NCBI GenBank assembly: GCA_001801305.1
Contig: MGXH01000058.1
Span: forward strand, 961 to 64,960
DNA length: 64,000 nucleotides
Direction of reading: 5' to 3'
Source: Gammaproteobacteria bacterium GWE2_42_36
GTDB lineage: Bacteria > Pseudomonadota > Gammaproteobacteria > UBA12402
Shown: positions 6,631-60,451 of the stretch, piece by piece
Layout: every line of letters starts with the position of its first letter
How positions within the stretch are numbered: the first letter of the stretch is position 1
Made by a program: the position numbers and the translations under genes
The notes under the pieces: model-generated
Seen by the model: only the letters and a program-made list of their open reading frames with translations
What the model was told of the DNA's origin: nothing
Databases searched by the model: none

Positions 6631-7690
6631 TCTCGAGCCGACAATCAATCTCCTTAATTTTGACCGCCCGTCTTTGCGCACGTATTTTATTGCGTTAGGG
6701 GAAAAGCCTTTTCATGCGGATCAAATTATTCAGTGGATTCATCAATACGGCCATCAAACGTTTGATCAGATGACGAATCTCAGTAAAAAATTGCGCGAGT
6801 ATCTAATCCAGCATGCCGAAGTTAAACCGCCTCAGCTCGTGCAAGAACAAATTTCTCAGGACGGTACGCGCAAATGGTTGCTGCAACTAGAGGATGGTCA
6901 ACAGATCGAGACCGTTTATATCCCTGAAAAAAGTCGCGGGACACTTTGCATCTCTTCACAAGCCGGTTGCGCGCTGAAATGCGCTTTTTGTGCGACGGGC
7001 CAGTTGGGTTGTAAGCGGAATTTAACGGTTGCCGAAATTATTGGACAATTATGGTTTGCAGTTCGGCGATTATCGGCTGAGCAGCCGGATCGAGAGCGCA
7101 TTATTACGAATGTCGTGCTGATGGGTATGGGTGAACCGTTGTTAAATTTCGACAATGTAATTAAGGCGACGCAACTGATGATGGACACGTTTGCCTATGG
7201 TTTTTCTAAATATCGCGTCACTTTAAGTACCGTCGGGATTGTGCCCGCTATTGACCAACTCTCCAAAATAAGCGATATTTCACTGGCTGTTTCTTTGCAC
7301 GCGCCCACCGATGAAATACGTGATCAATTGATTCCGATCAATCGACAATATCCGCTACATGCACTCATGGCTGCTTGCCGACGTTATTTTGAAACGGATA
7401 AACGACGTAAAGTCACATTCGAATATGTGATGTTAAAAGGCATTAACGATTCACCCGCCCAAGCAAAAGCATTGGTTAAATTATTGCAGGGTATTCCGAG
7501 CAAGGTGAATTTGCTTTTATTTAATCCCGTGTCGGGCGTTCATTATGAGCCGTCTACCGATGAGGCAGTCGATGCATTTTGGGCGGTTTTGACCAAGGCT
7601 GGGTTGCAAACACAATTACGTCGAAGACGCGGCAGTGATATTGCTGCCGCATGTGGTCAATTGGCGGGATCTGTTTCGACGAATAAGTAG
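6623..7690 (+). CDS. rlmN: 23S rRNA m2A2503 / tRNA m2A37 methyltransferase (radical SAM) RlmN
   Basis: It has a CxxxCxxC radical-SAM motif ([11 protein letters not shown]) and RlmN-like N-terminal and C-terminal regions. The start is placed at MDNLEP, overlapping the ndk stop; the ORF-track start at 6446 is probably too early. Confidence 0.9.
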
Positions 7691-7885
7691 CCTTACGTCA
7701 GCATGCCTGCTGGATTGCGGGAATACGTCAGAGAGATGCTTCACGAATACGGTTCAGAATCAGATTTCTGCTTTTGCAGGAATGACACTATTAAAAATCA
7801 TGATGAAGCAATTTATTTTTTCAATTCTTAAACGAGGTTGAAAAAAGTATTGTTCTAAATGGGCCGCATAGTTTATTACAACCTG

Positions 7886-7914
7886 CTTTCTTATCCCGAA
7901 CCCAGGTTTATTAC
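7886..7914 (+). repeat. Dispersed motif copy A (cTTTCTTATCCCGAACCCAGGTTTATTAC), 22 bp upstream of the pilW-like start
   Basis: It shares the core TTATCCCGAAnnCAGGTT with copies at 19512-19534 and 33583-33606. Confidence 0.7.
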
Positions 7915-33411: not shown

Positions 33412-33437
33412 TCTTACCATTTCGAACGATAGTCTAA

Positions 33438-33470
33438 AAAGGCATGGCGTAAAAACCATGCCTTTTTTAT
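33438..33470 (+). terminator. Rho-independent terminator after rpsA
   Basis: aggcatgg-cgtaaaaa-ccatgcct followed by TTTTTT. Confidence 0.8.
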
Positions 33471-33582
33471 TAATAGATCATTGTCTCTTTTTGATGAGAG
33501 GGGCTGTTTTTCCCTCTATAGAATGTCTGTTGACGACTAACGGATTGTCAGATGGAGGCAGCGGTTCAAATAACGTGTTTTC

Positions 33583-33606
33583 TTATCCCGAACTCAGGTT
33601 ACATAA
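33583..33606 (+). repeat. Dispersed motif copy C (TTATCCCGAACTCAGGTTACATAA) in the rpsA/ychJ convergent intergenic region
   Basis: Same core as copies A and B. Confidence 0.7.
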
Positions 33607-33658
33607 GTTGAGAGAACATAAGAGATTTCTGGGCAATCGTTTAAATCGAGTAGGGTTT

Positions 33659-34072
33659 TTATTTCTTAATATTATCGCTTTTAGTGTTTAGCACATAACT
33701 GCCATTGACATACAACCAGCGCCCATTTTCGTAATGAAATTCACTCCGCTCATGAATAGATTGATTTTTTCCTCGATAATGAAATCGCGCGATGAATTCC
33801 ACATATGCTATCGTCCCATGAGGTTTTGGCGCATCAATGATTGTTAATCCAAGCCATGTTGATTCTTTAGCCCATTGTTTTGCGCTTGCCGCATCAAAAT
33901 TATGCAGAGCCTCGCCTTTCATAGTTTTAAGAATATAATCGACGTTTGTTTTAGAATAAGCAGTATATCGCGAACGCATTAACTGTTCCGGTATTTCAGG
34001 GATCTTATGATTTTCAATATATTGGCCACAACAATGAAAATACTCTTTTTTTGATCCACAAGGGCAAGGCAT
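33659..34072 (-). CDS. ychJ: SEC-C motif protein, YchJ family (UPF0225)
   Basis: N-terminal PCPCGS...CCG and C-terminal CxC metal-binding motifs. Confidence 0.8.
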   Translation of the reverse strand: MPCPCGSKKEYFHCCGQYIENHKIPEIPEQLMRSRYTAYSKTNVDYILKTMKGEALHNFDAASAKQWAKESTWLGLTIIDAPKPHGTIAYVEFIARFHYRGKNQSIHERSEFHYENGRWLYVNGSYVLNTKSDNIKK

Positions 34073-59850: not shown

Positions 59851-59959
59851 GAGAAGAAATTGCTAGCAACCGTCATTGTGAGAAGCGTAAGCGACGAAGC
59901 AATCCAGAATCAAATGGGATTGCTGGAAGTTAGATGAGGCATTTTATGTTCTGGATCCC

Positions 59960-60451
59960 GTGGTCAAGCCGCGGGATGACACAGAGTTGGATTCCACTCG
60001 AATGACAAACGATCTTGCACAGGCCAAACAAATCGCATGGAAATTATTGTCTGATCGGGAATATGCTCGCCATGAACTTTGTCATAAGCTAATTCAACGG
60101 GGCTTTGATCGAGAGAGGGTGGATGTATTGCTCGATGAATTGCAGGCGGACGGATTGCAAAGCGATGAGCGTTTTGCAGAAATTTACATTCGCAGTTATG
60201 CGCATCGGGGTCAAGGCCCATTGAAAATTCAACAAGCGCTTCGAGATAAAGGCGTATCAGACACGATTATAGAAATCTGTTTTGAAGCGGGAAATTATGA
60301 TTGGTTTGCGTTAGCGCGTGAATTGCGAGCTCGAAAATTCGGCGAGACTGTGCCAAAAGATTTTGCAGCACGCGCTAAACAATCTCGTTTTTTGCAATAT
60401 CGCGGGTTTAGTTGGGAACAAATTAAAGCAGCGTTTTCGAAGGTTGAGTGA
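59960..60451 (+). CDS. recX: RecA regulator RecX
   Basis: It lies downstream of recA and has three-helix-repeat character. The start may be at 60002 (MTNDL). Confidence 0.8.
   Translation: MVKPRDDTELDSTRMTNDLAQAKQIAWKLLSDREYARHELCHKLIQRGFDRERVDVLLDELQADGLQSDERFAEIYIRSYAHRGQGPLKIQQALRDKGVSDTIIEICFEAGNYDWFALARELRARKFGETVPKDFAARAKQSRFLQYRGFSWEQIKAAFSKVE

Follow-up and report, generated by a model that had tools for sequence, protein, structure and literature searches.

When the same short sequence stands perfectly conserved at several unrelated intergenic sites of one bacterial genome, the question arises as to whether it is a regulator binding site, a dispersed repeat of the punctuation type, or part of a mobile element. 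The present locus poses this question in a window of 64 kb, by which we mean the whole stretch of DNA that was analysed; this DNA is also contained in ANAN16-1 scaffold_63, MAG GCA_003542495.1 and PRJNA268031, among other records. Exact matches to the 18-mer TTATCCCGAANNCAGGTT were located in this window at positions 7891-7908, 19512-19529 and 33583-33600, all on the + strand. These are the three copies, hereafter copies 1, 2 and 3, that an earlier note had described, and their gene settings were also as it had reported, namely upstream of a pilW-like gene, at the tsaB stop, and in the rpsA/ychJ spacer. The same note had judged such a repeat unlikely to arise by chance, and this was borne out by the statistics: at three or fewer mismatches to the 18-mer there are four matches in the window against 0.5 expected, and none of 100 dinucleotide shuffles reached four. 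For exact matches, the chance expectation is ~3e-5 (simple arithmetic on 16 specified bases in 128 kb, i.e. both strands).

The fourth match in that count, which carries three mismatches and lies at 15507, was set aside as noise, and an nhmmer profile of element ends revealed no further weak copies in the window. A reverse-complement half-site, TGTAACCTG at 62797-62805, had been offered as a fourth occurrence; however, the bases that follow it, TTTTTCTTTGTC, do not extend the repeat, the end profile is silent at this position, and a 9-mer such as this is expected to occur ~0.5 times per 64 kb by chance. This half-site is a chance occurrence. Alignment of the three sites with 60 nt of flank on each side showed that they share only a T-rich 5' side and an ACA on the 3' side. 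Searches of the window with Rfam (at gathering thresholds) and ARAGORN returned three tRNAs and no match at the motif, while a literature search with the motif string yielded unrelated primer sequences and nothing else.

The identity of the motif emerged from an exact pattern scan with the 18-mer across the GTDB set, at one genome per species, which returned at least 120 stretches. Among the matches listed, the hosts belong to the Cyanobacteriota, Bacteroidota, Gamma- and Betaproteobacteria, Chloroflexota, Planctomycetota and Acidobacteriota. In these matches the two free positions of the motif are nearly always CT, the preceding base is C in 75% and the following base is A in 77%; on the left side, conservation within a lineage continues beyond the motif, but on the right side it does not. 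Many of the listed matches lie within ~55 nt of a contig end, a proximity that is typical of a multi-copy repeat element. An inverted partner, TAACCTGAGTTCGGGATAAG (with up to four mismatches), is present to the left in 55 of the 124 matches listed. The partnered elements among them comprise 48 of 400 bp or less, with a spacing of 44-313 bp, corresponding to MITEs, and seven of ~1-1.6 kb. Their termini read AACCTG...CAGGTT, and they are bordered, among the matches listed, by direct target duplications of 3-8 bp, often AATT.

Within 12 of the loci listed, an ORF of ~270-317 aa that reads inward begins 76-112 nt inside the motif. Two of these ORFs match the Pfam family PF13612 (DDE_Tnp_1_3; E 1e-71 and 7e-75), and the one that was scanned against NCBIfam hit the equivalog NF033520 transpos_IS982 at 272 bits (cutoff 130). 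Furthermore, a PGAP-annotated IS982 family transposase on plasmid pTfr153 of Thiothrix fructosivorans (NZ_CP072750.1, ~130.97-131.96 kb; L157) has the consensus repeat on both sides, with one and zero mismatches, and the same repeat bounds transposase ORFs in four further sequences (L051, L070, L072 and L114). These reference elements measure 994-1205 bp and possess repeats of 19-20 bp, reading AACCTGAGTTCGGGATAAG at the left end and CTTATCCCGAACTCAGGTT at the right end. Measured against the 20-nt consensus CTTATCCCGAACTCAGGTTA, copy 3 shows no mismatch and copies 1 and 2 show two each.

In DDE transposons, the terminal repeat is the site of transposase binding and cleavage, and the IS982 family as described in ISfinder consists of elements of ~1 kb with two terminal inverted repeats of ~18-35 bp. 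The inverted partners, the IS982 transposases and the annotated pTfr153 copy therefore identify the motif as the terminal inverted repeat that IS982-family insertion sequences share with many MITEs derived from them. The suggestion that it might be a target or end sequence of a site-specific mobile element was thus half right: it is an end sequence, but the element is not site-specific, since the duplicated target, in most cases AT-rich, varies between copies. The earlier note had also allowed that its proposal would fall if a genome-wide search produced no further copies and the three were explained by local duplication; copies have proved to be abundant across bacteria. Several other candidate identities were dropped in view of the inverted partners, target duplications and IS982 transposases found beside the motif: a 5S rRNA fragment (CCGAACTCAG), a tRNA T-arm or integration site, sigma-28, sigma-54 and ECF promoter elements, a DNA uptake sequence, a group II intron end, and the 3' end of a TnpB/IS605 guide RNA.

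Solo ends of the IS982 type are common elsewhere, with ~34 of 89 assessable exact matches among those listed having no inverted partner within 2 kb. A few solo matches fall within long ORFs and carry atypical bases at the free (NN) positions (for example L053 and L069); these are probably due to chance.

The window itself holds ends only. No partner repeat was detected anywhere in it at up to six mismatches, matches at seven mismatches being at chance level, and tblastn with five IS982 transposases found no transposase remnant there (best E 0.8). Neither a transposase gene nor a ~1-kb body with two repeats, as an autonomous IS982 element would have, was seen in the window; nor was an intact MITE found in its 64 kb, or the parental IS. 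Where a MITE has both terminal repeats, copy 1 keeps six nucleotides of the left one and copies 2 and 3 retain one end each. Comparison of the three spacers by blastn with 124 element ends of other genomes gave similarity over ~26 nt at most. Conservation does extend past the core when the comparison is made with the ends of the reference MITE described below, to which 29, 37 and 40 nt of copies 1, 2 and 3, respectively, could be matched.

This MITE was found at the very site of copy 1 in related contigs. Copy 1 is situated in the 245-bp spacer between rlmN and the gene for a PilW-like TPR protein, and ends 27 nt before the TTG start of the latter (7936). A PilW-like protein 95% identical to that of the window is encoded on contigs L129, L130 and L131, the DNA of which is ~98% identical to the window from position 7881 onwards. 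Contig L130 carries at this site an intact MITE of ~385 bp (L130:2890-3275; 384 bp between the AACCTG and CAGGTT ends), the only intact copy of this particular MITE that was recovered. It is bounded by CAACCTGAGTTCGGGATAAC as left repeat and CTTATCCTGAACCCAGGTTT as right repeat, the latter followed by tattacaaaacccaaaaggag and the gene as in the window. The right junction of this filled allele was recovered in L129, L130 and L131, where L130 reads CCCAGGTT followed by tattacaaaaccc. The left junction was obtained from L154, which encodes an RlmN identical to that of the window and has the same spacer, running through tttattac into AACCTGAGTTCGGGATAACGGAAGACAAACAAGAG (the same junction is also given as tttattac followed by AACCTGAGTTCGGGATAAC or by AACCTGAGTTCGGGATAACGG).

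Against this reference, copy 1 is a deleted MITE of 29 bp on the + strand (7880-7908), composed of AACCTG, CTTTC and TTATCCCGAACCCAGGTT, that is, the six-nucleotide tip of the left repeat, five subterminal nucleotides and the whole right inverted repeat; its alignment with the right end of L130:2890-3275 shows 29 identities in 30 nt. It is bordered by the hexamer TATTAC on the left (7874-7879) and on the right (7909-7914), the target duplication that MITEs produce, and the same TATTAC is present at the L154 and L130 junctions. One breakpoint can be placed at the ACCTG of the left tip and the other at a further ACCTG, found in L130 11 nt inside the right repeat (tgACCTGctttcTTATCC), so that the window allele equals the MITE minus 355 bp, with its junction at a 5-bp direct repeat, ACCTG. 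Since the subterminal AACCTG recurs in full-length Methylobacter elements (L033 and L051), the microhomology is built into this IS subgroup. Insertion with target duplication and a deletion junction at microhomology are thereby both demonstrated for copy 1.

Both alleles are represented among the contigs: the filled form in L130, L131 and L154, and the deleted form in the window and in L153, which comes from the same sample as L154. A true empty site was not recovered, and the 72%-identity relative is too diverged to align. The 2889 nt upstream of the MITE in L130 (L130:1-2889) hold ORFs of 596 and 75 aa in place of ndk-rlmN, whereas L154 has the normal rlmN spacer. As this upstream context differs from that of both L154 and the window, L130 may record a MITE-mediated rearrangement in one strain, or may be a chimeric assembly across the repeat. 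Contigs also break at or near copy 1: a public MAG contig (L156; DPKN01000024.1) ends in acaacctg, L129 starts ~24 nt before the right repeat, and L002 has its start here as well. Such breaks fit assembly fragmentation arising from the filled/deleted polymorphism together with a multi-copy MITE.

Copies 2 and 3 are relics of single ends. Copy 2 (19493-19529, + strand) preserves 37 nt of the MITE left end, the element being inverted here, and 34 of these 37 nt match the reverse complement of L130:2890-2926; in the 19 subterminal nucleotides beyond the repeat, the match is 17 of 19 (P ~8e-9 at fixed register). It abuts the tsaB stop (the TAA is the reverse complement of 19528-19530), in the spacer that precedes a hydrolase gene on the - strand. 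When the metagenome was scanned with the Der GTPase, one relative was found, L128, which is syntenic with the window (Der protein 94% identical, DNA ~83-85% identical). Both flanks of its hydrolase-tsaB spacer align with those of the window, while 31 nt that include the motif core (19496-19526) are replaced by 43 unrelated nucleotides. Copy 2 is therefore shown to be absent from a relative, although the presence of the 43 unrelated nucleotides means that L128 does not offer a clean empty site. The element did not provide the TAA stop of tsaB, which is ancestral. The 43-nt segment of L128 (~7340-7382), TCCGTACACAAAAAGATGAGTGTTCCGCCGAGCGTGCTGATGA, contains a direct repeat, GATGAGT.

Copy 3 (33561-33600, + strand) is a 40-nt relic of the right end, with 33 of 40 nt matching L130:3234-3273 and 17 of the 22 subterminal nucleotides beyond the repeat in agreement (P ~6e-7 at fixed register). 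It occupies the spacer between the convergent rpsA and ychJ-like genes, past an apparent rpsA terminator hairpin, and is present in all seven same-species contigs (7/7). Its variants, ACGTG[T/C]TTTC and GAAC[T/C]CAGG, bring some strains nearer to copy 1 and L130. Filled alleles were not found for copies 2 and 3, the relics being those seen in all same-species contigs, and we infer that both arose by deletion of the rest of the element. The earlier observation that the copies always lie on the same strand is correct for all three, but for an inverted terminal repeat it carries no information: the right end of the element survives in copies 1 and 3 and, in the opposite orientation, the left end in copy 2, so the agreement in strand has no meaning.

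The spacer around copy 3 has some further features. A 77-aa ORF that has been publicly called over copy 3 (33458-33691, + strand) overlaps the 3' end of the ychJ-like gene and has no Pfam match; since the apparent rpsA terminator and the MITE relic both fall within it, the call is probably spurious. Immediately 3' of the rpsA stop (~33415-33430), a 9-nt duplication is polymorphic, ccatttcgttcatttcgaacg as against ccatttcgaacg (window versus L142 and L147), and the apparent intrinsic terminator hairpin of rpsA, aaaaaggcatggcgtaaaaaccatgcctttttt, lies 3' of this polymorphism.

Could the motif nevertheless be an operator or promoter element, through which a host transcription factor jointly controls the genes for the PilW-like protein and the hydrolase and one other target? 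The closeness of copy 1 to the PilW-like start, the position of copy 2 ~265 nt upstream of the hydrolase gene and the perfect conservation of the core in all three copies would be in keeping with such a role. However, copy 3 lies between convergent genes and past the likely rpsA terminator, a place that offers no gene to be regulated, copy 2 follows a stop codon, and all three copies run on into subterminal sequence that is specific to the MITE. An operator should keep its position relative to promoters and persist in the orthologous regions of relatives, but here the three contexts differ: copy 2 is missing from the otherwise conserved L128 spacer and there is no motif upstream of the PilW-like gene in the 72%-identity relative (L132-L134). 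Sister strains, moreover, tolerate a 385-bp MITE at the position of copy 1, itself a product of deletion in situ, and the identical sequence bounds transposons of unrelated phyla. A scan for promoters and terminators near copy 1 returned nothing on the motif strand. The unrelated contexts, the absence from relatives and the tolerated insertion thus make a regulatory role very improbable, and the regulator binding site envisaged in the earlier note is not supported.

The other proposal of that note, a REP-like punctuation element, holds loosely in that the motif is a dispersed repeat. Were the copies not transposon debris but a repeat maintained by the host as such (serving, for example, as terminator, RAYT substrate or mRNA stabiliser), one would expect them to be short, intergenic and dispersed, as they are, and a weak 6-bp stem can indeed be drawn in copy 1 (AACCTG...CAGGTT). 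REP and BIME sequences, however, are G+C-rich imperfect palindromes that form stable hairpins and occur in many copies, whereas the motif is neither self-complementary nor G+C-rich, numbers three copies per 64 kb, showed no terminator-like structure on the motif strand at copy 1 and no Rfam match, and has been identified as the end of IS982 elements and MITEs. We regard this explanation, like the operator, as scarcely credible.

By far the best account of the locus, to which we assign a probability of roughly 93%, is that the motif is an IS982/MITE end and that the three copies are inert scars of the ~385-bp MITE left after deletions. By analogy with other DDE transposons, an IS982 transposase would bind the ends, move the element and generate the short target duplication, and the MITE would have been mobilised in trans by such a transposase that is absent from the window. 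The element would have entered AT-rich intergenic DNA at three or more places in the lineage of the window, and host deletion would later have removed most of every copy. At copy 1, microhomology or slippage would have deleted the 355 bp between the ACCTG repeats, a 'nearly precise excision', while at copies 2 and 3 one breakpoint probably fell within the element and the other at or past its opposite end. The similarity of the three copies would then reflect a recent shared origin together with constraint on the ends for as long as the element was active. The relics cannot transpose, since the window offers neither a transposase nor a second end that could be used, and they are presumed to be inert now.

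How the deletions came about is a separate matter. Should the relics be specific products of a transposase (excision footprints, or one-ended or pseudo-end cleavage leaving ~30-40 nt) and not of random host deletions, their like sizes (29, 37 and 40 nt), the intact repeat in each and the frequency of unpartnered matches in other genomes would find a ready explanation. Yet the copy 1 junction falls exactly at the 5-bp ACCTG repeat, which is a signature of microhomology or slippage and not of cleavage at the tip, some of the solo matches elsewhere are likely to be chance occurrences within genes, and three relics are too few for their sizes to be called non-random; this origin is accordingly very unlikely. 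For copy 1, host slippage and aberrant transposase cleavage followed by repair would look alike, and from its sequence the two cannot be told apart. We give a similarly small probability to the surviving ends having been co-opted, either with copy 1 contributing to the promoter or 5' leader of the gene for the PilW-like protein, or with all three as putative sites for an IS982-type transposase or a domesticated regulator, or to recurrent one-ended excision that leaves intact ends of 30-40 nt.

Other small repeats occur in the window and its relatives. At 59954-59979, the window contains a 26-nt hairpin-forming sequence, GATCCCGTGGTCAAGCCGCGGGATGA (reverse complement TCATCCCGCGGCTTGACCACGGGATC), with one mismatch to the interior of the MITE (L130:2969-2994); by blastn, the similarity extends over 35 nt at 94%. 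It may be a fourth, internal fragment of the MITE, or an independent small palindromic repeat nested in it. A second small dispersed repeat, GTCATTGTGAGAAGCGTAAGCGACGAAGCAATCC, is present once in the window (59872-59905), and similar sequences were noted in an intergenic region of L130 (L130:368-427) and in the rlmN/pilW-like spacer of the 72%-identity relative, Gammaproteobacteria bacterium GWF2_41_13 (L132, ~9860-9895). This relative also carries a Gp49/HTH_3 pair resembling a toxin-antitoxin system between the PilW-like and RodZ-like genes (L132:10564-11215 and L133:10507-11158), which is absent from the window.

The locus can be placed beside several known systems. IS982 insertion sequences such as the pTfr153 copy and those of Methylobacter luteus (L051) and Paludibacter (L070) share the terminal repeat of the window copies, and have in common with the present element the AACCTG...CAGGTT ends and the short, variable target duplications. 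In contrast to them, the window copies lack a transposase, a second end and a ~1-kb body, being fragments of a non-autonomous derivative. The remnant structure of copy 1 is exactly that of the 'nearly precise excision' described for transposons with inverted ends, Tn10 and Tn5, in E. coli, in which the stretch between two short direct repeats inside the inverted ends is lost independently of the transposase, leaving a small remnant and an intact target duplication. Here, the element is a MITE and the event is deduced from natural alleles of a metagenome population.

IS982-derived MITEs have been documented in a Cardinium endosymbiont, for example MITECca01 (Halter et al. 2022, PMC9769881), and the biology of MITEs has been reviewed (PMC3184786). 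Elements of the MITECca01 type are short and non-coding, possess the inverted repeats of their IS982 parent and are presumably mobilised in trans, a description that the intact ~385-bp element of L130 fits; the present host, however, is an uncultured groundwater gammaproteobacterium, the interior sequence and length are different, and the window has deleted remnants only. An as yet unnamed member of the IS982 group of MITEs, the element occurs here in a new host and chiefly in the form of deletion relics. Degraded IS copies are known as genomic fossils in bacteria (Cerveau et al. 2011, PMC3205602), and these are likewise truncated, non-functional transposon fragments in intergenic DNA, although the relics described here are extremely short (29-40 nt) and one intact progenitor allele is still segregating in the population.

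For annotation, a perfectly conserved intergenic 20-mer invites a regulatory reading, which in this case gives way to transposon debris. In six phyla or more, elements of the IS982 type and MITEs have the exact 18-mer end in common, which makes it convenient for searching out an under-annotated superfamily of MITEs, and IS982-type ends are a cause of contig breaks in MAGs, that of the present window included. Finally, a single metagenome population in which one and the same site is occupied by either the intact MITE or the 29-bp product of its deletion provides a clean natural example of how a MITE may be erased through built-in microhomology, the subterminal ACCTG of one end repeating the tip of the opposite end.
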